64,000 nucleotides of DNA from Anaerolineaceae bacterium (GTDB taxonomy: Bacteria > Chloroflexota > Anaerolineae > Anaerolineales > Anaerolineaceae): assembly GCA_034429975.1 (NCBI GenBank), contig DAOUFM010000118.1, positions 18,570-82,569 of the forward strand, read 5' to 3'. The notes below the pieces were generated by a model. The model saw only the letters and a program-made list of their open reading frames with translations, made no database searches and was not told the origin of the DNA. Shown piece after piece: positions 39,780 to 49,397 of the stretch. The stretch's first letter is position 1, and each line of letters starts with the position of its first letter. A program made the position numbers and the translations under genes.

Positions 39780-40655
39780 CTACACCTTCTGTGGTCTTGG
39801 TTTTCCAAGGATACCGTACGGGCGAAAGATCAGTAAGATCAACAACAGAGTGAAGGCGACAAAATCGCGATAGGTGGAAGGCAGGAAGGCTGCCACCAAA
39901 ATTTCCACACCACCCAGGATAAATCCGCCGATCATCGCGCCGCGAATATTACCAATCCCCCCAACCACCGCAGCGATGAAGGCCTTCCACCCGATCAGGA
40001 TCCCCATATACGGGTCAATGACCGGAAAGGCCAATGCATACATCACCCCGGCTGCACCGCCTAAACTGGTTCCAATTGCAAAAGTTGCAGAGATCACCAG
40101 GTTCAATGGCACACCCATCAAGGGGACAATCGTTTTATCCCAGGAGATGGCGCGCATGGCCATTCCTACCATCGTCTTGCGGATAATATAATCCAATATA
40201 ATCAGCAAGATGATCGAAAGGATGATGATCAACACCTGCAGCGATGAAATGGAAACGCCGCCAACATTCCAGGTTATATTTTTTATTAAGGTGGGGACGT
40301 GCTGAGGGTAGGGGGCAAATACGAGCGTAAAATTTTCCAGAAAAATGCCCACTCCCAAAGCGGTAATAATCGCGGATACACGTGGCGCCTGGCGCAAAGG
40401 TTTATACGCAAAACGCTCGATCAACACACCCACAATCGCCACACCGATCATCGAAAGCAGCAGGGTAGGAACAAAAGGTAATCCCAGCGCCGTAGCAGCC
40501 AGGAAACAGAAAAAAGCTCCCACCATAAACAGATCGCCATGGGCAAAATTGATCATGGTTAAAATTCCATAAACCATGGTGTAACCCAAAGCAATCAACG
40601 CATAAATACTACCCAGTTGCAGGGCATTTAGAATTTGTTGAAAAAGATATGTCAT
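39780..40655 (-). CDS. livH: Branched-chain amino acid ABC transporter permease
   Basis: 291-aa polytopic ORF. MTYLFQQILNALQLGSIYALIALGYTMVYG is a typical LivH N-terminus. Confidence 0.88.
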   Translation of the reverse strand: MTYLFQQILNALQLGSIYALIALGYTMVYGILTMINFAHGDLFMVGAFFCFLAATALGLPFVPTLLLSMIGVAIVGVLIERFAYKPLRQAPRVSAIITALGVGIFLENFTLVFAPYPQHVPTLIKNITWNVGGVSISSLQVLIIILSIILLIILDYIIRKTMVGMAMRAISWDKTIVPLMGVPLNLVISATFAIGTSLGGAAGVMYALAFPVIDPYMGILIGWKAFIAAVVGGIGNIRGAMIGGFILGGVEILVAAFLPSTYRDFVAFTLLLILLIFRPYGILGKPRPQKV

Positions 40656-40669
40656 TGGATACCCCTGGG

Positions 40670-40710
40670 AAAAAAATCATCCGCAGGTGGAGATTTCACG
40701 CCTGCGGATG
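40670..40710 (-). terminator. Intra-operon attenuating terminator after the binding-protein gene
   Basis: CATCCGCAGG (40678-40687) pairs with CCTGCGGATG (40701-40710). On the minus strand it is followed by T7 (A7 at 40670-40676). Confidence 0.6.
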
Positions 40711-40725
40711 TTGATGAGAGAGAAT

Positions 40726-41898
40726 CTACGGGTTCGCGTTTGCAAACCAGACGAATTTATCGCCTTTCACCTGTAGGATCACCGCGCTCTTGATCGGGTC
40801 GCCTGAACCTTCTTTGAAGGCCATATTACCGGTTACCCCTTCGAAGTTGGAGATCTTGGTCATACCGTCACGCACCGCTTCGCGATCAATCTTGCCAGCA
40901 TTTTGCAGAGCCTGCCAGAGTAATCCAAAAGAATCAAACGTCAGAGCAGCAACATCATCCGGTGTAACGCCATATTTAGCGCTATACTCATTGATAAATT
41001 TTTTCGCATTTGGTGTAGCGGCATCCGCTGCATAATGAGTGCTGAAATAATAGCCTTCACAATCGGTGCCACACAGTGTGATCAGCTCAGAACTGCCCCA
41101 GGAATCGGACCCCAGGAAGGGCACATTGATGCCCAATTGATGCGCCTGTTGAATCTGCAGAGGGACTTCACTGTAATAATTCGGCAGGAAAATAACTTCC
41201 GGCCCGGCTTCTTTAATTTTGGTTAACTGAGCAGTGAAGTTCTTGTCGCCGGTGGTATAGGTCTCATAAGCCACGACTTTTCCACCATTCTCTTCATAAG
41301 TTTCTTTAAAGAATTCTGCAATTCCTTTGTTGTATTCTGAAGCAACATCAAACAAAACAGCAGCTTTTGTAGTTTTCAAATTATCCAGCGCAAATTTCGC
41401 AACCACACGTCCCTGGAAAGGATCAATAAAAGCCGCCCGGAACACGTATTTCTTGGGTTCATCAGTCTTGGCATCCAGGGTGGTCTTTGGGCTGGTTGAC
41501 CAGGGGCTGATCAATACCACCTTTGAGCTTTCTGCTACTTCCGAAGCTGGGATGGCATAACGGCTGGCATTTGGCCCAATGATGGCAACGACGTTTTGTT
41601 GCGTGATCAGTTTTTGGGCTGCCGAAGCAGATTGATCAGCTTTGCCAGCATTATCTTCGATATATAACTCGACTTTATATTTCTTGCCGCCAACTTCCAG
41701 CCCGCCAGCATCATTGATTTCCTGAACCGCCATTTCTGCTGCATTCTTACAGGAAGCACCCACCGCTGGGATATCACCGGTTAATTCAGCAATGACACCC
41801 ACTTTGATGGTTTGCGCCTGGCCACCTGACTGGCCACATGCGCTTAATACCATACTTAAAATCAAAACCACGCCTAATAATAAGGCTATCTTTTTCAT
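40726..41898 (-). CDS. livK: Leu/Ile/Val-type ABC transporter substrate-binding lipoprotein
   Basis: Lipobox LSMVLSAC, then a type I periplasmic-binding fold with KVGVIAELTGDIPAVG. Confidence 0.88.
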   Translation of the reverse strand: MKKIALLLGVVLILSMVLSACGQSGGQAQTIKVGVIAELTGDIPAVGASCKNAAEMAVQEINDAGGLEVGGKKYKVELYIEDNAGKADQSASAAQKLITQQNVVAIIGPNASRYAIPASEVAESSKVVLISPWSTSPKTTLDAKTDEPKKYVFRAAFIDPFQGRVVAKFALDNLKTTKAAVLFDVASEYNKGIAEFFKETYEENGGKVVAYETYTTGDKNFTAQLTKIKEAGPEVIFLPNYYSEVPLQIQQAHQLGINVPFLGSDSWGSSELITLCGTDCEGYYFSTHYAADAATPNAKKFINEYSAKYGVTPDDVAALTFDSFGLLWQALQNAGKIDREAVRDGMTKISNFEGVTGNMAFKEGSGDPIKSAVILQVKGDKFVWFANANP

Positions 41899-42024
41899 TT
41901 CTTATTCCTCCGTGAATTATTCAATTAGGGATTGGGTTGAGTAACAAAATAAAAATTGAGTTGGGGAAAGATATATCTACCGGAAGCAATCACCTCCATT
42001 CAATATAACCTAGTCTATCTTTTT

Positions 42025-42053
42025 ATATTACAGAAGTTATTTACTAATGTCAA
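42025..42053 (-). promoter_or_regulatory. Promoter TTGACA-17-TAATAT for the liv operon
   Basis: On the minus strand the -35 is at 42053..42048 and the -10 at 42030..42025. An inverted repeat TAGAAAT-N8-ATTTCTA (42055-42076) abuts the -35. Confidence 0.55.
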
Positions 42054-42124
42054 CTAGAAATTTGACATTATTTCTATCAGATTCATCAAGAATAGGATAT
42101 AGCTAAAAGCTATCAGGGGAAAGT

Positions 42125-42166
42125 AAAAAAGAAAAAGTCTGCCCCTCTAATTTTTATTAGAGGGGC
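42125..42166 (-). terminator. Rho-independent terminator of the AT-rich operon
   Basis: 11-bp perfect stem GCCCCTCTAAT (42141-42151) pairing with ATTAGAGGGGC (42156-42166). On the minus strand it is followed by a TTTTTCTTTTTT tract. Confidence 0.8.
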
Positions 42167-42247
42167 TTTGAAAAAGAGTAGGAAAAGATTGTTTGTAAAT
42201 TAGCCTTGATAATTAAAAATTAAATAAATATTTTTCTTTATTAAATC

Positions 42248-42556
42248 TTAATTTTTAACTTTCTGGTTTTCGGATGAATCTTGTTGGCCTTGTTCAAGAC
42301 TTGCTTTGAGAAAAACTTCTTTTGCCAATTGTAATCTTTCTTTTCCTTCAGTATTAATTCCAGCATTTTCTGCAGTAACTCGCCATAACTCTTCAGGATA
42401 AGCTAAGCTTAAACTGTAACTCCTCTCATAGTTTTCAAAGAAATCTCTCAAAAAATTGAAATCTTCATCAGAAATTATTTCTTTCTTCATTTCAACAACA
42501 AGATCATGGATTTCATTGGCGACTTGAATTAATTCTCTCTTTATGGATCTCTTCAT
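42248..42556 (-). CDS. 102-aa hypothetical protein (helical, acidic); no domain recognised
   Basis: Its start overlaps the upstream stop by 1 nt (TAATG). Very AT-rich. Confidence 0.6.
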   Translation of the reverse strand: MKRSIKRELIQVANEIHDLVVEMKKEIISDEDFNFLRDFFENYERSYSLSLAYPEELWRVTAENAGINTEGKERLQLAKEVFLKASLEQGQQDSSENQKVKN

Positions 42557-43389
42557 TATATAAAAAGCTCCTGCGGCAGCAAATTTGCTGCTAAATCAGG
42601 TAAATCCCACCAACTTTTATCAAGGATTTCTGAATTCCCATTTTCAGGAACCTCATTTTCAACAAATAAAACTTGCCAGGGATTGATTTGCATAGGATTA
42701 TTTGTCTGGTTACTCACTAAAGTAGTAAGGATTTCATGAACAATATTCTGTTTATCTTCTCCACTGCGAATTAGAATACTCGACAATTCAAGTATCGGAT
42801 TGGATAGAGAGGTATCATCATCTAATTCGCCACTGAATGACGCACCATTCAGGTTTCTTGATAGAACAATGGCAGGTGCTGTTTTTGTAAATAAGCAAAA
42901 AGTTCTAAGTAAGGAAGAATAAAACTGAAAGCATAATTGTGAGGAATAAGCATCTTCTGATAATTCGTTTTCATTGTGGTTATGGATACTGGTATTAATA
43001 ATTAAAGTATCCTGCTCCCAGAAGATATCAAGATTTCCAATGATGAAATCATTAGCCAGTTCTGTATCTCGTATTTCTTGTTGAGGAGCTCCTTTTTCAA
43101 AAACAAACTGATTTCTAAGATTTCTTTCCCTCTCAGAAAAAGAATTGTTATTAACTTCATCACCAGCAGGGTAGTATTTGATTAAAAAGTTTGCAACATT
43201 CTCGAGTTGAGATGGGAGTGAAAACAAATCAAAAACACCTGAAAAATTATGTAGCCAAAAATACCAACCTCTGTTTTTGGTAAGTCCACTCACCATTCTA
43301 AATCCAATTTGATCCCTAATTTTTTCATTAAAAATTGAATACAAAATGATATTATTTATTTTAGAAAGTATCTTATTGTTTTTATCCAT
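42556..43389 (-). CDS. 277-aa hypothetical protein; no domain recognised
   Basis: Long ORF in the lowest-G+C DNA of the window. AGGA SD. Coupled to the 102-aa gene. Confidence 0.65.
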   Translation of the reverse strand: MDKNNKILSKINNIILYSIFNEKIRDQIGFRMVSGLTKNRGWYFWLHNFSGVFDLFSLPSQLENVANFLIKYYPAGDEVNNNSFSERERNLRNQFVFEKGAPQQEIRDTELANDFIIGNLDIFWEQDTLIINTSIHNHNENELSEDAYSSQLCFQFYSSLLRTFCLFTKTAPAIVLSRNLNGASFSGELDDDTSLSNPILELSSILIRSGEDKQNIVHEILTTLVSNQTNNPMQINPWQVLFVENEVPENGNSEILDKSWWDLPDLAANLLPQELFI

Positions 43390-43408
43390 CGCAATCCTAT
43401 TTTTGTTT

Positions 43409-43444
43409 TATGCCTACAGAGGATGAAGCTCCTCTATAGGCATA
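43409..43444. other. 15-bp-stem hairpin between the MBL gene and the 277-aa gene
   Basis: TATGCCTACAGAGGA (43409-43423) pairs with TCCTCTATAGGCATA (43430-43444) with one mismatch. No U tract on either strand. Confidence 0.5.
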
Positions 43445-43467
43445 ATATCCGGATCTATCGGCTTTAA

Positions 43468-44613
43468 CTACCCAAAAACAATCGTGTCACCATTTCCAAG
43501 ATAATCAGCACACTTTGAACCAAACGAAGCGGTCCCTTTTATAACCGGGTAACCAGCCTCAACGAATTTGTGAGCGGTCAGGTTGCCTGTACAATGGTTA
43601 CAGCCAATTTTCTGGAAGCCATATTCTTTCAACCCAAACACTAAATCATCATAGCGTGGGTCCCAATCTTCAAATGGCGATATATGTAGTCCACCATATA
43701 CACCATAGGGGCGATCACCACCCTTGATCGTCGAATAACAGGCTTCAGCCATTTGTAAAATACCCTGATGGCAACAGCCTGTCACTTGAACGATACCATG
43801 ATCTTTTACATTGAAAAACAGAGATTGCTCTCCAAATACACGGCAAATTATTCCTACCGGGAAATAATAGCCGGCAGTTCCAGGAATTTGCTTTCCATTT
43901 TTATCGTGGACCGGGAAAAGATGGAATTTTTTTGATTGGGTTTCATATAACTTTCCTTTAAACCCAGATTGTTTAATAAATTCTTTTCCTTCGGGATAAT
44001 AATCTCCTCCAATGTACATATCAATATCATTCTTATATTTCATTGTTGCAGGTAAGCCCCAAAAATGATCAAAGTGCTCATGGCTCACGAAAAGATTATC
44101 GATTTCTCCGTTTTTAAGCATTTTGTCAACGCCTGTTTCCTGGAAGCGTTTATCAGTCCAATCAAAATTCCAGCCTGTATCCAAGAGAATGAATTTTCGA
44201 TCTCCATCTAGCAATTCTATATCTAAGAGAGCTGCAAATCCTCCTGCATTGTCTACATTCAAATCTCCGCGGGGATTACCTGGTTTCCCAGCTGGTGGCC
44301 ATGGATATTCCCACTGATTGACTAACAACCCACCCATGTCAGCAAAATCTTTTGTGAGCGTCGCATTATCAAACCAGCTTGTTTCACTAATACAAGTAAT
44401 GGTTAGCTTTTTAATTTCTCCAATATCTATATCACCCTTTTTTCTTTCCTCTAAAAATCTTTTTCGCCAGGGAGAAACAGAAAATGCACCCATTGTTCCG
44501 ACAAATCCGCCTACAGCGCCAACCCCCATCCATTGTAAGAAATTCCTTCTTGAAACTTCACCCTCATTCTTTTCATCAATAAGGATCTGATCATTTTTTT
44601 CTTTATTTTCCAT
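43468..44613 (-). CDS. Tat-exported MBL-fold metallo-hydrolase (COG1237-like)
   Basis: Twin-arginine signal SRRNFLQWMGVGAVGG. HxHxDH motif VSHEHFDHFWG, plus TGCCHQG, GGLHISP and GCNHCTG. ATG 44613 has a GGAGG SD; the track's TTG start at 44658 would overlap the miniprotein ORF. Confidence 0.8.
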   Translation of the reverse strand: MENKEKNDQILIDEKNEGEVSRRNFLQWMGVGAVGGFVGTMGAFSVSPWRKRFLEERKKGDIDIGEIKKLTITCISETSWFDNATLTKDFADMGGLLVNQWEYPWPPAGKPGNPRGDLNVDNAGGFAALLDIELLDGDRKFILLDTGWNFDWTDKRFQETGVDKMLKNGEIDNLFVSHEHFDHFWGLPATMKYKNDIDMYIGGDYYPEGKEFIKQSGFKGKLYETQSKKFHLFPVHDKNGKQIPGTAGYYFPVGIICRVFGEQSLFFNVKDHGIVQVTGCCHQGILQMAEACYSTIKGGDRPYGVYGGLHISPFEDWDPRYDDLVFGLKEYGFQKIGCNHCTGNLTAHKFVEAGYPVIKGTASFGSKCADYLGNGDTIVFG

Positions 44614-44639
44614 TTTTTTCCTCCAATCTTCATTCAACT

Positions 44640-44753
44640 CTAGGGAAAAATTTTCCAATTAGGAATAACCAGGAGAAAGAAAGCAAAGAATAAAATAGCG
44701 CCAAGGATTACTCCTACAATAACCCCTTTCCAGTTTACTTTAGATGTTTCCAT
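44640..44753 (-). CDS. 37-aa single-TM miniprotein (below the ORF-track cutoff)
   Basis: My translation is METSKVNWKGVIVGVILGAILFFAFFLLVIPNWKIFP. Its ATG overlaps the upstream TAA (TAATG) and GGAGGA lies 6 nt upstream. Confidence 0.5.
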   Translation of the reverse strand: METSKVNWKGVIVGVILGAILFFAFFLLVIPNWKIFP

Positions 44754-46057
44754 TATTTTTCCTCCACAATAGCAACCTTAATTTTTTTAAATCCAGGCCA
44801 GTTATCCATAAACCAATGATGGATCAACATCATGTTAATAAACCAAATGGTTGGCACCATCGGATATTGCATCGCATGCGCCATTTCCTGTTGTACACCC
44901 AGGTATAAATGCCCTGTTTTGTAGTAAAAGACATATACAGCAATTCCTAGAATAAATGTTACAACGGTTCTAATTGTCCAATTAACCGGTTTGCTGAATT
45001 TTTTCGGCCAGTTTCCACAATAAAAAGTAATAAACATTGCCGGCAACAAGAAAAACACCATTGTTTCCCCAACATGTAACCAGCGCCAACCTGGGTCAGC
45101 CATATAACGATCACCCAAAATAGCTGGCCCAAACGCTAATTCCTGCGCAAAATAAATTCCGAAGGCAAAGGCAAAGGCAATAACGATAATCCCGAAAAAG
45201 GTAACCAATCCCCTCAGCCCGGTACGTTTTATTTCTGAGAAGGGCCATCTTTCCCAGATAGTTTCGACCAACCAAACGACAACCGTACAACACATGATCC
45301 AGGCAATATGAAAATTCCCACTAACAGTTCCGGCAATATTCATCCACCAAGGAGGAGTAACTGCTGCAAAATATTGCCAGGGGAAATAAATAATTCCCAT
45401 ATGTGAATGCATAGTTGCCAGATAAATCATTGTGGCAATGAAAAAAGTAACTACCAGAACGGTAATTCCAAGAGCAGGTTGTTTCAATTTATCCCAGGGG
45501 CGGTTTTCAAATGCGACTGGCCATGCAGGGCTTAACCAAGAAGCCAAGGCAGCAAACATCAAACAAGCCAACGAGGCATATTCCATTGCAAAAAATTCGG
45601 TAATGCCTAATTCTGCCACCATTCGAGATGGGCTAAAATACGTGATTGCAAAATTACCCAAGAAACCAAAGAAAAAACCTCGAATCAGAATGAGCAAAAT
45701 TCCGGTCATTACCAGCGTCAAAACGATCCCTTTGATGATCGGATGAGTCCTTTCTAACCAGCTTCGCTTGAATGGCCAATAATGGAAAAGATAAACCATC
45801 CAGATAGCTATAATTAGAATCCAGCGGGTGTACATATATCCAACCTGAGGTGTGTATAAACGCAGAACACCTCGCGGGTCCATAAAGATCCACCAGGTTA
45901 CATAAAAAATAGCAGCCACAAACAAAAAACTCACAACCTGAGGCCATGGTGATCGCCAACGCCCGACCAGCTTTCGCTCTTCGAGATAGCCAGTACCAAA
46001 AGTCTCTTCAGATACAGAGGTTTCTTTTGCGCCGAGGGCAATATCGGCTGTACTCAT
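44753..46057 (-). CDS. 434-aa polytopic, Trp/His-rich membrane protein of unknown family
   Basis: About 11-12 hydrophobic segments. First gene of the operon, with an AAAGGAGAG SD. Confidence 0.75.
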   Translation of the reverse strand: MSTADIALGAKETSVSEETFGTGYLEERKLVGRWRSPWPQVVSFLFVAAIFYVTWWIFMDPRGVLRLYTPQVGYMYTRWILIIAIWMVYLFHYWPFKRSWLERTHPIIKGIVLTLVMTGILLILIRGFFFGFLGNFAITYFSPSRMVAELGITEFFAMEYASLACLMFAALASWLSPAWPVAFENRPWDKLKQPALGITVLVVTFFIATMIYLATMHSHMGIIYFPWQYFAAVTPPWWMNIAGTVSGNFHIAWIMCCTVVVWLVETIWERWPFSEIKRTGLRGLVTFFGIIVIAFAFAFGIYFAQELAFGPAILGDRYMADPGWRWLHVGETMVFFLLPAMFITFYCGNWPKKFSKPVNWTIRTVVTFILGIAVYVFYYKTGHLYLGVQQEMAHAMQYPMVPTIWFINMMLIHHWFMDNWPGFKKIKVAIVEEK

Positions 46058-46122
46058 AACAACTCTCCTTTCAAAAATTATTGGGGGGATTCCTGCTTTG
46101 AGAATTAGCAGTGCTTATCATG

Positions 46123-46150
46123 ATTGTAACACTAATAAAATATAATACAA
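46123..46150 (-). promoter_or_regulatory. Candidate promoter TTGTAT-16-TACAAT for the membrane/MBL operon
   Basis: On the minus strand the -35 is at 46150..46145 and the -10 at 46128..46123. The -10 overlaps the motif TGTAACACTAA (46125-46135), which recurs as TGTTACACTAA at 46434-46444. Confidence 0.4.
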
Positions 46151-46505
46151 CTAATAAATTAGTTATGTCCTAAATATAATGATATTATTCACATAATATA
46201 ATATGTGTTAAAATACATTTAAAGGTTGATAAAAACGCTTTTCTTATTCAATAAAAAAAACCGAAAGGATAATTTTTACGTATAATCGAAATTCATAAAC
46301 AGCTGACTTTAAGAAAAAGTAAAGCTTTTTGTTACTCTTACTTCACTTTTTTCTGCCTGAGTTCCAGCTGGAAAGGGTAAAATACGAAAGTTACTCAAAT
46401 TCGTCATTTTTTAGCATTGTTGCTTCGATTTAATGTTACACTAACTGAAAAAAGATGAAATAATAGCAGCATTACAATCAAACAGAGTAAGAACATCGAG
46501 GAATA

Positions 46506-47147
46506 ATGACAGAAATCTCAACCACCTCAGGAAATGATCAACTTAATCACGAACAAGAAGTCGATATTGGAAATCGCATTCGCGATCTCCGAATTGATCG
46601 AGGTTTAACAATAAAAGAATTAGCTGCTTTGAGTGAACTTTCCGTCAACGCTTTAAGCCTGATTGAAAATGGGAAAACATCGCCTTCTATTAATACCATG
46701 CGGCAAATAGGAAAAGCCCTGAAAGTGCCGATGACAAAATTTTTTGAACCACAAAGGGAAGAAAAAAAAGTGGTTTACATTCCAAAAAATCAGCGTAATT
46801 CCGTGTTTGCCAAAGTAGCGGAATTTTCGTATTTAAGTAAAGATTTAGTTGGAAAAGGATTCGATGTTCTCATCGTCTCAACTCCACCATTATCAGACAG
46901 TGGACCAATACCAATTAATCACAGCGGCTATGAGTTTGTTTTTTGTCTGATAGGAAAAATTTTGTATTCAGTTGAAAATGAACATTTCTTGCTTGAACCT
47001 GGCGATAGTGTTGCTTTTATTGCATCTTTGAACCATCAATGGAAGAACCTTGACACGACTGAATCTAAATATTTATTAGTGATGGTAAGTACTGAAACTG
47101 AACCTGCGTTAATTGCAATCAATGAACACTTTCCTGACAAACACTAA
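46506..47147 (+). CDS. XRE-family HTH regulator with a C-terminal cupin sensor domain
   Basis: IGNRIRDLRIDRGLTIKELAALSELSVNALSLIENGKTSP is the HTH. GYEFVFCLIGKILYSVENEHFLLEPGDSVAF is the cupin. It is divergent from the operon. Confidence 0.85.
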   Translation: MTEISTTSGNDQLNHEQEVDIGNRIRDLRIDRGLTIKELAALSELSVNALSLIENGKTSPSINTMRQIGKALKVPMTKFFEPQREEKKVVYIPKNQRNSVFAKVAEFSYLSKDLVGKGFDVLIVSTPPLSDSGPIPINHSGYEFVFCLIGKILYSVENEHFLLEPGDSVAFIASLNHQWKNLDTTESKYLLVMVSTETEPALIAINEHFPDKH

Positions 47148-47333
47148 GTTAATAATTCTTTATATTAACTTTTTCAACCTACAAAATAGTATAATGGGTA
47201 AGCATTCATCTCTATTTTCCTGGGGATCATCTACTACGTTTGAACTCCGCAAAAGAGAAATCCAAACCTGACTGATTTATTGACTTGTCAGAAAACCAAA
47301 CCTATCCGAGGCTGACAAAGGAGATTACATCGT

Positions 47334-47819
47334 ATGGAAGAAACAAGAGAAAGTAACCTGACAAACGAGAATAATCGCTACGCTCGTTTTCGTCCGGTTT
47401 TATCCAAACGCTGGTTACTCATCATCGCCGGCTGCATGTGGTCAGCAGTTGGTATTATGCTGATGACCTACGCGATCGTGTGGCTGACCAGGGAGCTTTC
47501 CATTAGCTCAATTCTGCTGGGTCTTCTTGGCGTGGCTCTTTCGATAGCGATGTTTCGTTTCATTTTTAAGAAAATTGCCAATAAAAATGTAGATCGCATC
47601 CTCTCGCTAGATGACAAAGCCTGTCTTTTTTCCTTCCAGCCCTGGACCAGTTATTTGATCATCGTCTTTATGATGACACTTGGAATTATCCTGAAAAACT
47701 CTGCCATCCCCAAACCTTACCTGGCCGTCGTCTACATGACCATCGGCAGTGCCCTCTTTCAAGCCAGCATCACCTATTACACGCACTTTGCTGTGTACCA
47801 AAGTTCAGGCGTTTCTTAA
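47334..47819 (+). CDS. 161-aa 4-TM hypothetical membrane protein
   Basis: AAGGAG SD and hydrophobic segments. Confidence 0.6.
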   Translation: MEETRESNLTNENNRYARFRPVLSKRWLLIIAGCMWSAVGIMLMTYAIVWLTRELSISSILLGLLGVALSIAMFRFIFKKIANKNVDRILSLDDKACLFSFQPWTSYLIIVFMMTLGIILKNSAIPKPYLAVVYMTIGSALFQASITYYTHFAVYQSSGVS

Positions 47820-47996
47820 GAATCAGGCAGATCTTAATATCTCATCCCAACCCACACCACCCCCTAATCATCTCCCATTATAAAATCTAACAAAATTCTT
47901 CCTGAATGATAAATTTAGCTGCAAATAACGATCTTTATCATATTGACTTCAATCCAACGAGGTGATAACCTAATACATAAGGCTAACGGAAGAGTT

Positions 47997-48110: not shown

Positions 48111-49397
48111 ATGGCTTCTTCAACCAATGCATTTGAAATGGCACAAGCCCAGTTCGATCATGTTGCTGAGTTGCTGCAATTAGACCCGGATGTGCGCGAG
48201 ATCCTGCGCTGGCCTTTGCGCGAATTTCAATTCCGCATCCCGGTGCGGATGGATGATGGCAGTATCCGCGTTTTTCAGGGTTTTCGCGTTCAGCACAATG
48301 ACTCCCGCGGACCAAATAAAGGCGGTATTCGTTTTCATCCGGCAGAAACGATCGATACTGTACGGGCGCTGGCAACCTGGATGACGTGGAAATGTGCCGT
48401 GGTCGATATCCCGCTGGGCGGTGGCAAGGGTGGTGTGGTGGTTGACCCTGCTACGCTTTCTACAGCCGAGAAAGAACGCCTGGTGCGTGGGTATATTCAG
48501 CAGCTCTGGAGAAATATCGGCCCCCGCCAGGACGTGCCGGCGCCAGATGTGGGCACCACGCCGCAAATGATGGGCTGGATGATGGATGAATACTCCAAAT
48601 TAACCGGTCAATATACCCCCGGCGTCATCACCGGCAAACCGGTCGGTAATGGCGGGTCGCTTGGTCGTACCGAAGCCACCGGTTTTGGCGTAATCTACAC
48701 CGTCAGGGAAGCGCTCAAACATCTCAAATTAGATCCCACAAAATGTACCGCCGCTATTCAGGGCTTTGGCAATGTCGCTCAATATGCAGCCATTGGATTT
48801 ATTGAATTCCTGGGTGGCAAGGTGATCTGCGTTTCCTATTGGGATCGTGAAGATCGTGCTTCTTACACTGTCAGCAAAGCTGATGGAATTGATCCGCATT
48901 TCTTAAGAGCCATCACCGACCAGTATGGCACCATCGATAAAGCCAAAGCCAGAGAAGCAGGCTATGTGATTGAAGATGGCGACGCCTGGATCTCCAAGGA
49001 AGTGGATGTTATCATCCCCGCTGCGTTGGAAGGCCAGATTAACGCCGACAGCGTTAAGAAGATACATGCCAGTGTAAAAATAATTGCCGAAGGCGCCAAT
49101 GGCCCCACCACCCCTGATGCAGACAAGGTCATTCAGGAGAAAGGCATTTTCCTGGTGCCCGACTTTTTATGCAATGCCGGCGGTGTGACCGTCTCTTACT
49201 TTGAAGGCGTGCAAAACGATATGAACTTCTACTGGGGCAAAGAAGAAGTGCTCGAAAAAGAAGATCAGAAAATGACCTCTGCTTTCCAGGCTGTGCTCGA
49301 AATGTCATTGAAAGAAGATGTCTACATGCGCGACGCAGCTTACATGGTCGCCATTGCCCGGGTGGTGAAAGCCATGGGGCTGCGCGGCTGGATATAA
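48111..49397 (+). CDS. gdhA: Glutamate dehydrogenase
   Basis: GGIRFHP and DIPLGGGKGGV motifs, with a GFGNV Rossmann motif. 428 aa. Confidence 0.92.
   Translation: MASSTNAFEMAQAQFDHVAELLQLDPDVREILRWPLREFQFRIPVRMDDGSIRVFQGFRVQHNDSRGPNKGGIRFHPAETIDTVRALATWMTWKCAVVDIPLGGGKGGVVVDPATLSTAEKERLVRGYIQQLWRNIGPRQDVPAPDVGTTPQMMGWMMDEYSKLTGQYTPGVITGKPVGNGGSLGRTEATGFGVIYTVREALKHLKLDPTKCTAAIQGFGNVAQYAAIGFIEFLGGKVICVSYWDREDRASYTVSKADGIDPHFLRAITDQYGTIDKAKAREAGYVIEDGDAWISKEVDVIIPAALEGQINADSVKKIHASVKIIAEGANGPTTPDADKVIQEKGIFLVPDFLCNAGGVTVSYFEGVQNDMNFYWGKEEVLEKEDQKMTSAFQAVLEMSLKEDVYMRDAAYMVAIARVVKAMGLRGWI

Follow-up and report, generated by a model that had tools for sequence, protein, structure and literature searches.

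A conserved bacterial operon pairing a predicted Tat-exported metallo-β-lactamase-fold enzyme with a membrane protein of a putative new family

Results

Organization of the operon

A 64,000-nucleotide stretch of DNA from an Anaerolineaceae bacterium (Chloroflexota; GenBank assembly GCA_034429975.1, contig DAOUFM010000118.1, positions 18,570 to 82,569), referred to here in its full length as the window, carries on its minus strand a single operon of five genes (46057-42248), which is the subject of this study. The genes encode a polytopic membrane protein (MEM), a 37-aa miniprotein, a protein of the metallo-β-lactamase fold (MBL) and two further proteins of 277 and 102 aa, P277 and P102:

44753-46057, minus strand: MEM gene, 434 aa, ATG start with GGAG 8 nt upstream
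44640-44753, minus strand: miniprotein gene, 37 aa with a single transmembrane (TM) segment; its ATG overlaps the MEM stop codon as TAATG, with GGAGG upstream
43468-44613, minus strand: MBL gene, 381 aa from the ATG of MENKEK, with GGAGG upstream, 26 nt past the miniprotein stop codon
42556-43389, minus strand: P277 gene, 277 aa, separated from the MBL gene by a 78-nt gap
42248-42556, minus strand: P102 gene, 102 aa, its first codon overlapping the P277 stop codon

The tight coupling of the first three genes, already recognized in a preliminary description of this DNA, was confirmed from the coordinates by the TAATG overlap and the 26-nt spacing, and the motifs quoted there were all found (SRRNFLQ, HEHFDH, TGCCHQG, GCNHCTG, MHSHMGIIYFPWQYF and LIHHWFMDNWPGF). 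The trio of genes proposed in that description has to be enlarged to a module of four conserved protein families, with P277 and P102 added, and the 37-aa peptide, there called unannotated, is present in the public gene calls of the same contig; public calls on contigs identical to the window give the same genes as those listed here, the 37-aa one included. An open reading frame (ORF) lister gave the MBL gene a longer form starting at a TTG (44658) that overlaps the miniprotein gene; the ATG preceded by a ribosome binding site is the better start, and the JGI and Logan gene calls agree with it. None of the five operon proteins matched the anti-phage defense models of PADLOC.

Distribution and gene neighborhoods

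Loci were retrieved with alignments of individual MEM subfamilies; a joint profile of all diverged MEM relatives had no sufficiently conserved stretch. A MEM relative of the window type (subfamily 1) occurs in 242 of 185,579 species genomes, and in all 80 species-level loci retrieved, on which the subfamily-1 counts are based, the MBL gene follows MEM on the same strand. MBL also follows MEM in D. hydrogenovorans, Desulfuromusa, Cohaesibacter and Desulfohalobium retbaense, and this adjacency is far beyond chance. In subfamily 2, whose hosts include Geobacteraceae, Nitrospirota, Desulfomonile tiedjei, Propionivibrio, Rhodoferax and Desulfobacula, MEM is ~30% and MBL 37-42% identical to the window proteins, and 23 of 24 loci have the gene order (monohaem cytochrome c)-MBL-MEM-P102-P277, the P102 and P277 homologs matching at E 1e-14 and E 1e-8, respectively. 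The cytochrome, a small secreted protein with one CxxCH and a Dehyd-heme_bind score exactly at the cut-off, adjoins the module in about 10 of these 24 loci (L174 10258-10572; L173 6355-6696). A further group, subfamily 1b, in which MEM is ~45% identical and whose hosts include Negativicutes, Syntrophaceae and Nitrospiraceae, has the MBL-MEM pair together with P277 and P102 in a third gene order in each of its 20 bacterial loci. In the loci counted for these two subfamilies, as in subfamily 1, MEM and MBL are adjacent and co-directional. Because the four families have been kept together through three gene orders in three diverged subfamilies, there is strong evidence that MEM, MBL, P277 and P102 constitute one functional unit, and the co-occurrence that a real module would be expected to show was seen in every related locus examined.

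Altogether the gene set is present in at least ~285 species-level genomes of the Desulfobacterota, Chloroflexota, Nitrospirota, Negativicutes, Spirochaetota, SAR324, Acidobacteriota and some Proteobacteria. The hosts, mostly anaerobes and including sediment and digester bacteria, come mainly from sulfidic, metal-limited habitats; cultured ones are Desulfohalobium retbaense, Desulfomonile tiedjei, Cohaesibacter and Ferrimonas lipolytica. ExbB-ExbD-TonB genes lie directly downstream of the module in D. retbaense and Desulfuromusa, and in 17 loci a gene for a ~130-aa NifX/orange-protein-like protein, weakly matching the C-terminus of MrpORP (NF041136), stands immediately ahead of those for the small protein and MEM (e.g. 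L069 7385-7765). Ectoine-type catabolic genes in Cohaesibacter and genes for a sulfatase and its anaerobic sulfatase-maturating enzyme (anSME) in D. retbaense were considered as parts of the module and treated as unrelated, being on the opposite strand and not conserved elsewhere.

The membrane protein and the miniprotein

MEM matched nothing in Pfam or NCBIfam even at E ≤ 1, nothing among PDB sequences at E ≤ 10 and no PADLOC model. When 1.84 billion cluster representatives were searched with a MEM profile, only 171 proteins were returned; by this measure MEM forms a small family that stays apart from any larger one. The preliminary description could not place the protein in any family, and it still has no match to a well-characterized family in Pfam, NCBIfam, PDB or Foldseek searches. 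The length of 434 aa stands, whereas the 11-12 TM segments estimated earlier become ten helices in the AlphaFold model. The first such model, from a 22-sequence alignment of close homologs, had a predicted local distance difference test score (pLDDT) of 68 and gave only G-protein-coupled-receptor noise in Foldseek; the second, from a 65-sequence alignment that included the diverged subfamily, reached a pLDDT of 84.4 and a predicted TM-score (pTM) of 0.86 with ten TM helices. Even with the confident model the best Foldseek match in the PDB was not significant (E 0.039, TM-score 0.15, root-mean-square deviation (rmsd) above 20 Å), and the top matches at this level were to ActC and ActF of alternative complex III, with 6lod_C and 6f0k_C as the best chains (E 0.039-0.12, TM-score 0.15).

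The loops of MEM hold 20 lysine and arginine residues on the inner side versus 4 on the outer, and because of this bias both termini are placed in the cytoplasm and the loop 216-247 outside. That loop contains MHSHM...PWQ...PPWW...SGNFH and is the least confident part of the AlphaFold model. TM2-5 align with TM6-9 in the same orientation (hhalign probability 95%, E 6e-9), and the protein is composed of five tandem two-helix hairpins, each closing with a cytoplasmic WP(F/W)xK motif; hairpin pairs align with hhalign probabilities of 60-93% for 9 of 10 pairs, scores that TM composition can inflate. TehA/SLAC1 proteins, of the tellurite-resistance/dicarboxylate transporter (TDT) family, are likewise built from ten TM helices arranged as five hairpins in tandem, and their N- and C-termini too are cytoplasmic (PMC3172217). 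The likeness is one of architecture only: MEM has no Pfam SLAC1 match, and no such chain was among the top 50 Foldseek matches, so that membership of this family is not supported. The JGI label of many MEM homologs, AAT family amino acid transporter (APC), was rejected, there being no Pfam or NCBIfam match at E ≤ 1, no significant Foldseek match to an APC or LeuT-fold chain, and a parallel repeat in place of the 5+5 inverted repeat of that fold. Membership of the NrfD/PsrC/ActC group found no support either, given no Pfam match, insignificant Foldseek scores and no gene for an iron-sulfur (Fe-S) subunit. Apparent Rosetta-stone fusions of MEM and MBL proved to be odd-length matches from chimeric assemblies with phosphoenolpyruvate carboxykinase or PilT parts. 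As far as profiles and the predicted fold allow comparison, MEM represents a membrane-protein family not yet described.

Within subfamily 1, MEM proteins of Anaerolineae, Desulfobacterota, Spirochaetota, SAR324, Acidobacteriota, Planctomycetota and Alphaproteobacteria are 59-82% identical to one another, with more than 130 positions invariant in 22 sequences. Ten residues (T69, P70, G73, Y140, E159, H217, H219, P226, Q228 and G315), most of them on the outer face, are kept only in the MBL-linked subfamilies, as are an outer-face T-M-H-S/P-H-M motif and E159/E331 within TM helices. A fourth MEM-like subfamily, ~25% identical and found in 261 species including Desulfosporosinus and Syntrophobacteraceae (loci L093-L172, e.g. 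L099 6001-7170, L148 and L126), lacks the outer-face H-x-H and several other of these residues, and none of its loci has an MBL, P277 or P102 neighbor. Its genes stand instead beside those for coenzyme A (CoA) ligases, CoA transferases, acyl-CoA dehydrogenases, thiolases, mutase/MeaB and amidase/GatC-like proteins, and its members likely represent a new carrier family by which sulfate reducers and syntrophs take up carboxylates; because they sit in acyl-CoA and carboxylate catabolic operons, the MEM family at large appears to behave like a transporter. Very distant MEM-like genes (23-26% identical) were also seen in metagenome-assembled genomes of Thermoproteota and Asgard archaea (Freyarchaeota, Jordarchaeia), with no MBL nearby (L218-L221).

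Beyond the Anaerolineae-type lineage MEM homologs are longer (466-481 aa) and bear an extra cytoplasmic linker and an eleventh TM helix (TM11) at the C-terminus. The 37-aa miniprotein, which has no match in Pfam, NCBIfam or PADLOC, aligns with this helix of the fused forms, sharing the pattern G-x3-G-x3-G-(V/A)-x2-(Y/F)-F ... P, and is kept as a separate ORF in five related Anaerolineae-type species at 44-65% identity. Because of these two observations the miniprotein is judged to be a real gene, with TM11 either split off by fission or shown here in its ancestral state before fusion. What had been described as an independent component is rather the equivalent of the C-terminal helix of longer homologs.

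The MBL-fold protein and its signal

The MBL protein scores 29.9 bits against Pfam Lactamase_B (PF00753; cut-off 22.7), which places it in the superfamily. Its closest relatives in the PDB are 7dck, 2p4z and 3h3e (E 2e-10 to 3e-5), in which TGCAH or TGCSH and HCSG or HCTG are aligned with its own motifs. The earlier assignment to the COG1237 type (COG1237/DHPS-like) is supported by these PDB relatives with their TGCxH and HC(T/S)G motifs. Across subfamilies 1 and 2 the invariant residues are R22, F25, H178-x-H180-x-D182-H183, T-G-C280-C281-H282, G-G-x-H310 and C338-N-H340-C341; the HxHxDH, TGCCH, GGxH and CNHC set is thus unchanged although the MBL sequences are only 42-48% identical.

At the N-terminus the twin-arginine motif SRRNFLQ is followed by the hydrophobic segment WMGVGAVGGFVGTMGAFSV, and RRxF/L is found in 114 of 120 MBL homologs. 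The region that follows differs between subfamilies. Subfamily-1 signals have G-x3-G repeats and then a conserved YSYSP(W/L)RK after the hydrophobic region (h-region), with no AxA site and a proline at +1, whereas those of subfamily 2, in which MEM lacks TM11, carry a canonical AxA site in 16 of 16 loci. Because of the missing AxA site and the proline at the cleavage position, the subfamily-1 signal is probably retained as an N-terminal anchor helix, with which TM11, or in the window the miniprotein, may pair.

The accessory proteins

P277 has no Pfam or NCBIfam match and no cobW domain. It corresponds to residues ~28-220 of CobW proteins of ~610 aa, which carry the cobW and CobW_C domains in their C-terminal half together with a CxCC motif: the P277 ortholog of locus L001 matches the long CobW protein of L006 at E 6e-18 over 198 aa, and window P277 matches that same protein at E 0.002 and the subfamily-2 P277 proteins at E 1e-8. 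P277 is thus a homolog of the first ~280 aa of long COG0523 (CobW-like) GTPases and is predicted to act as an accessory protein in the cytoplasm. A COG0523 protein of ~610 aa is encoded after the MBL gene in 63 of the 80 subfamily-1 loci; Anaerolineae and subfamilies 1b and 2 can do without the COG0523 domain. Some subfamily-2 P277 proteins end in Cys/His-rich tails such as GTGCCCCH.

P102 belongs to no family in Pfam, NCBIfam or PADLOC. It matches small proteins of L174 and L173 (E 5e-14 and 1e-13) and a 143-aa protein of L001 (E 8e-6), and in subfamily 1 its homolog is usually encoded directly upstream of MEM. In most lineages the N-terminus of the family has a twin-arginine-like S/T-R-[RK]-x-F-[FL] without a hydrophobic h-region, a motif that is degenerate in window P102. 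Outside the Anaerolineae a lipoprotein of ~124 aa ending in GPKSGKVEY is often encoded between the MBL and CobW genes (L006 12578-12952; L048, L058, L062 and others). It has two conserved cysteines, is sometimes tandem-duplicated to 230-380 aa and has no family assignment; that it might be a cytochrome was rejected for want of CxxCH.

Regulation and surroundings

Besides the five genes, the following features were located in and around the operon:

46184-46211, minus strand: promoter-like site TTAACA-16-AATAAT, 10/12 positions, in the 448-nt AT-rich divergent intergenic region
43409-43444, minus strand: hairpin between the MBL stop and the P277 start, 15 bp with one G.T pair, followed by an A-rich rather than T-rich tract; read from the sequence
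42141-42166, minus strand: terminator-like hairpin ending the operon, 11 pairs of which 6 are G-C, with a T-rich tail, 80 nt past the P102 stop; from a consensus scan only
46506-47147, plus strand: divergent XRE helix-turn-helix and cupin regulator, PuuR-like (HTH_3 5e-13, Cupin_2 2e-9)

Promoter-like sites are no more frequent in the 448-nt intergenic region than in shuffled sequences, so that the site listed is weak evidence of a promoter. A riboswitch search of the 448-nt leader and the rest of 42000-47400 found none. The hairpin ahead of P277 could be an element of mRNA processing or stability, or a partial attenuator that sets the ratio of enzyme to helper proteins.

The predicted regulator differs by lineage. 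XRE-cupin regulators adjoin the module in Leptolinea and other Anaerolineaceae relatives at 54-55% identity, and a GntR/FCD regulator stands beside it in 21 loci, both being types of regulator typical of catabolic operons. In 22 subfamily-1 loci (e.g. L018 5721-7076) there are sigma-54 activators with C-x-[DE]-x6-C-x3-C in a PAS domain, a motif spaced like the Fe-S ligands of Desulfovibrio vulgaris OrpR (PMC8359166). Promoter elements of the -24/-12 type (TGGCA-N7-TTGC[AT]) precede MEM by 210-700 nt in 15 of 68 loci, where about one would be expected.

The guanine-plus-cytosine (GC) content of the patch 42000-47900, which spans the operon, the XRE-cupin regulator and the gene for a 161-aa membrane protein, is 37.3%, versus 45.6% in the window, and P277 and P102 are at 32-33%. 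The patch may have been horizontally acquired, which would fit the conservation of the module across phyla. The 161-aa protein, encoded past the XRE-cupin regulator (47334-47819, plus strand), has several hydrophobic segments and no Pfam or NCBIfam family; its gene was seen only on contigs identical to the window and is missing from 80%-identical relatives. Farther out lie a branched-chain amino-acid/amide-type ATP-binding cassette (ABC) transporter (39780-41898, minus strand; Peripla_BP_6 binding protein and permeases) and a glutamate dehydrogenase (48111-49397, plus strand), which are kept in identical contigs and are unlinked to the module in other species.

Discussion

The components of the operon recall known systems, from each of which the module departs. 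The MBL protein has HxHxDH, TGCxH, GGxH and HC(T/S)G in common with COG1237/DHPS-like MBL proteins (7dck, 2p4z and 3h3e; KEGG label K06897), but those of solved structure are 248-284 aa long, align from residue ~20-40 and have no signal peptide, whereas the window protein has a Tat (twin-arginine translocation) signal motif and ~85 extra N-terminal residues, two extra invariant cysteines (C281 and C338) that are absent from the cytoplasmic PDB relatives, and obligate partners in MEM, P277 and P102. The GTPase gene beside MBL in 63 of 80 loci is the usual chaperone-client arrangement of COG0523 GTPases (CobW/ZigA/YeiR/Nha3-type); the COG0523 protein of this module differs in its ~280-aa N-terminal P277 domain, present in no described COG0523 protein, and in a presumed client that is Tat-exported, while the window differs again in encoding the P277 domain alone, with no GTPase. 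Tat-exported enzymes with an NrfD/PsrC/ActC subunit likewise combine a folded, cofactor-loaded catalytic subunit with a polytopic partner and cytoplasmic helpers; unlike them, the module has no molybdopterin or Fe-S subunit, its catalytic subunit is of the MBL fold, and MEM has no Pfam or structural match to NrfD. ComEC, too, unites a polytopic channel with an extracytoplasmic MBL domain, but it fuses what the module keeps apart, its membrane part is unrelated to MEM and its MBL domain is of another subfamily. Literature searches for an operon of this kind (COG1237/MBL with a Tat signal, CobW/COG0523, DHPS-like/MJ0301) found no description, in agreement with the preliminary description, which knew of no system of such composition.

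We tentatively favor a reading, plausible without yet being probable, in which the MBL protein works as a binuclear-metal enzyme on the outer side of the membrane, having received its metals in the cytoplasm before Tat exports it and a dedicated transporter-like partner takes it up as a docked subunit. The enzyme would fold and acquire its metals in the cytoplasm, with P277 serving as the client- or membrane-docking adaptor of a metallochaperone and P102 as a second cytoplasmic helper. A metallochaperone is suggested because P277 is homologous to the CobW N-terminus, because 63 of 80 loci contain a long CobW gene and because some P277 proteins have Cys-rich tails. The holo-enzyme would then be exported by Tat, the subfamily-1 signal probably remaining uncleaved as an N-terminal membrane anchor, and would dock on the strongly conserved outer face of MEM, a site suggested by the mostly outside position of the residues kept only in MBL-linked MEM proteins, in a topology fixed by the lysine and arginine bias. 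The anchor helix of the enzyme may have a packing partner in TM11, represented here by the 37-aa miniprotein. A small extracellular substrate would be converted, most likely through hydrolytic cleavage of a bond of the ester, phosphoester or amide type, and MEM, as a five-hairpin transporter-like protein, would move product or substrate across the membrane, for which the catabolic-type regulators and the operons of the fourth subfamily argue; expression would be set by the regulator of each lineage. An extracytoplasmic transformation tied to uptake, as first suggested, remains the best reading, with the paralog operons in its favor, whereas the alternative of electron transfer named alongside it retains only the weak hints of a cytochrome c in some subfamily-2 loci and of insignificant NrfD-like Foldseek matches.

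Several observations weigh against this favored reading. MEM, P277 and P102 have no characterized homolog, and the transport role of MEM is drawn only from the context of a ~25%-identical paralog; the conservation of MEM between phyla in subfamily 1 is unusual for a carrier and could mean that MEM has a part in catalysis instead of transport. For the signal that the preliminary description called a canonical twin-arginine signal, the motif and its recurrence among homologs are clear, but hidden Markov models (HMMs) of Tat signals score the window MBL below their cut-offs (TAT_signal, PF10518, 18.1 vs 22.7 bits; TIGR01409, 14.2 vs 16.7). The pairing of signal anchor and TM11 is a correlation between two subfamilies only, and subfamily 1b, with neither TM11 nor a clear AxA site, is ambiguous in this respect. 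No COG0523 gene is present in the window. Finally, the cytochrome c beside some subfamily-2 modules hints at redox chemistry, and the ExbB-ExbD-TonB genes, the orange-protein (ORP)-like proteins and the COG0523 fusion could indicate metal handling.

The last of these points leads to a different use of the same parts, in metal acquisition or trafficking, which we regard as unlikely. MEM would import a metal ion or metal complex through an outer H-x-H/Met site and membrane Glu residues, periplasmic MBL would free or process the metal from a chelate or sulfide-type complex, and P277-COG0523 would receive it on the cytoplasmic side. The fusion of P277 to a COG0523 GTPase with CxCC in 63 of 80 loci and the Cys/His-rich tails of some P277 proteins would suit such a pathway, as would the restriction of T-M-H-S/P-H-M and E159/E331 to MBL-linked subfamilies, the TonB system downstream of the module in D. 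retbaense and Desulfuromusa, the NifX/ORP-like proteins adjoining it in 17 loci and the sulfidic, metal-limited habitats of most hosts. However, no metalloregulator of the Zur, Fur, NikR or ModE type was seen beside the module, no metal riboswitch was found in 42000-47400, and Anaerolineae as well as subfamilies 1b and 2 dispense with the COG0523 domain. MBL, moreover, keeps a full catalytic motif set that a mere binding protein would not need, and the paralogous subfamily is tied to organic-acid catabolism. A bolder reading, to which we give a distinctly low probability, would have MEM and MBL together form a new kind of membrane-bound metalloenzyme, in which outer-face H217-x-H219, Q228 and Y140 and membrane E159/E331 complete the active site of the docked MBL or feed it. 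Matured by a COG0523-type chaperone of its own and with a MEM fold that has no solved relative, this complex would process and import a substrate beyond the reach of ordinary carriers in reduced, sulfidic habitats, such as a metal-thio complex or other metal-bound species.

A respiratory or detoxifying redox module appears to us decidedly unlikely as well. Here MEM would be a quinone anchor like NrfD, PsrC or ActC, and MBL a redox metalloenzyme in the manner of flavodiiron proteins or persulfide dioxygenases, with electrons passing in part through the small cytochrome c. The metal motif of MBL is the hydrolase-type HxHxDH, whereas that of flavodiiron proteins is HxExDH. Tat export with dedicated cytoplasmic helpers does recall the logic of complex iron-sulfur molybdoenzymes, the TM2-5/TM6-9 repeat of MEM is in keeping with such an anchor, and ActC and ActF head the Foldseek matches, but at an insignificant level (E 0.039, TM-score 0.15, rmsd above 20 Å). 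The OrpR-like Fe-S sigma-54 activators in 22 loci and the -24/-12 elements in 15 of 68 (PMC8359166) would also be consistent with redox control, and the CxxCH monohaem cytochrome c occurs in ~10 of 24 subfamily-2 loci; this cytochrome is, however, missing from subfamilies 1 and 1b and from the window, no Fe-S or flavin subunit is encoded, and the paralogous MEM-like subfamily has no periplasmic partner. That the module is a split ComEC-like device for nucleic-acid uptake or degradation, with an outward MBL nuclease on a membrane channel, is highly improbable, since the weak NCBIfam ComEC_Rec2 matches of MBL (E 0.045 here, 4e-4 for the L006 ortholog) cover only the generic HxHxDH region and lie far under the 190-bit cut-off, MEM matches neither Competence nor DUF4131 in Pfam, the neighborhoods contain neither com nor pil genes, and the closest MBL relatives are of the COG1237 and not the ComEC type.

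With three of the four conserved families (MEM, P277 and P102) absent from Pfam and NCBIfam, and with no solved structural relative of MEM, the module we favor as an exported, transporter-docked metalloenzyme follows an overall logic, that of an exported cofactor enzyme with a membrane partner and maturation factors, that is already known, but there is a real chance that its membrane component does something new. Solving the system would reveal what an operon widespread among anaerobic bacteria of sediments and digesters does, would define a new transporter-like fold, and would show how a COG0523 metallochaperone is targeted to a Tat-exported client by means of a dedicated adaptor domain. It would also provide the first physiological role for a COG1237-type MBL protein outside the cytoplasm.

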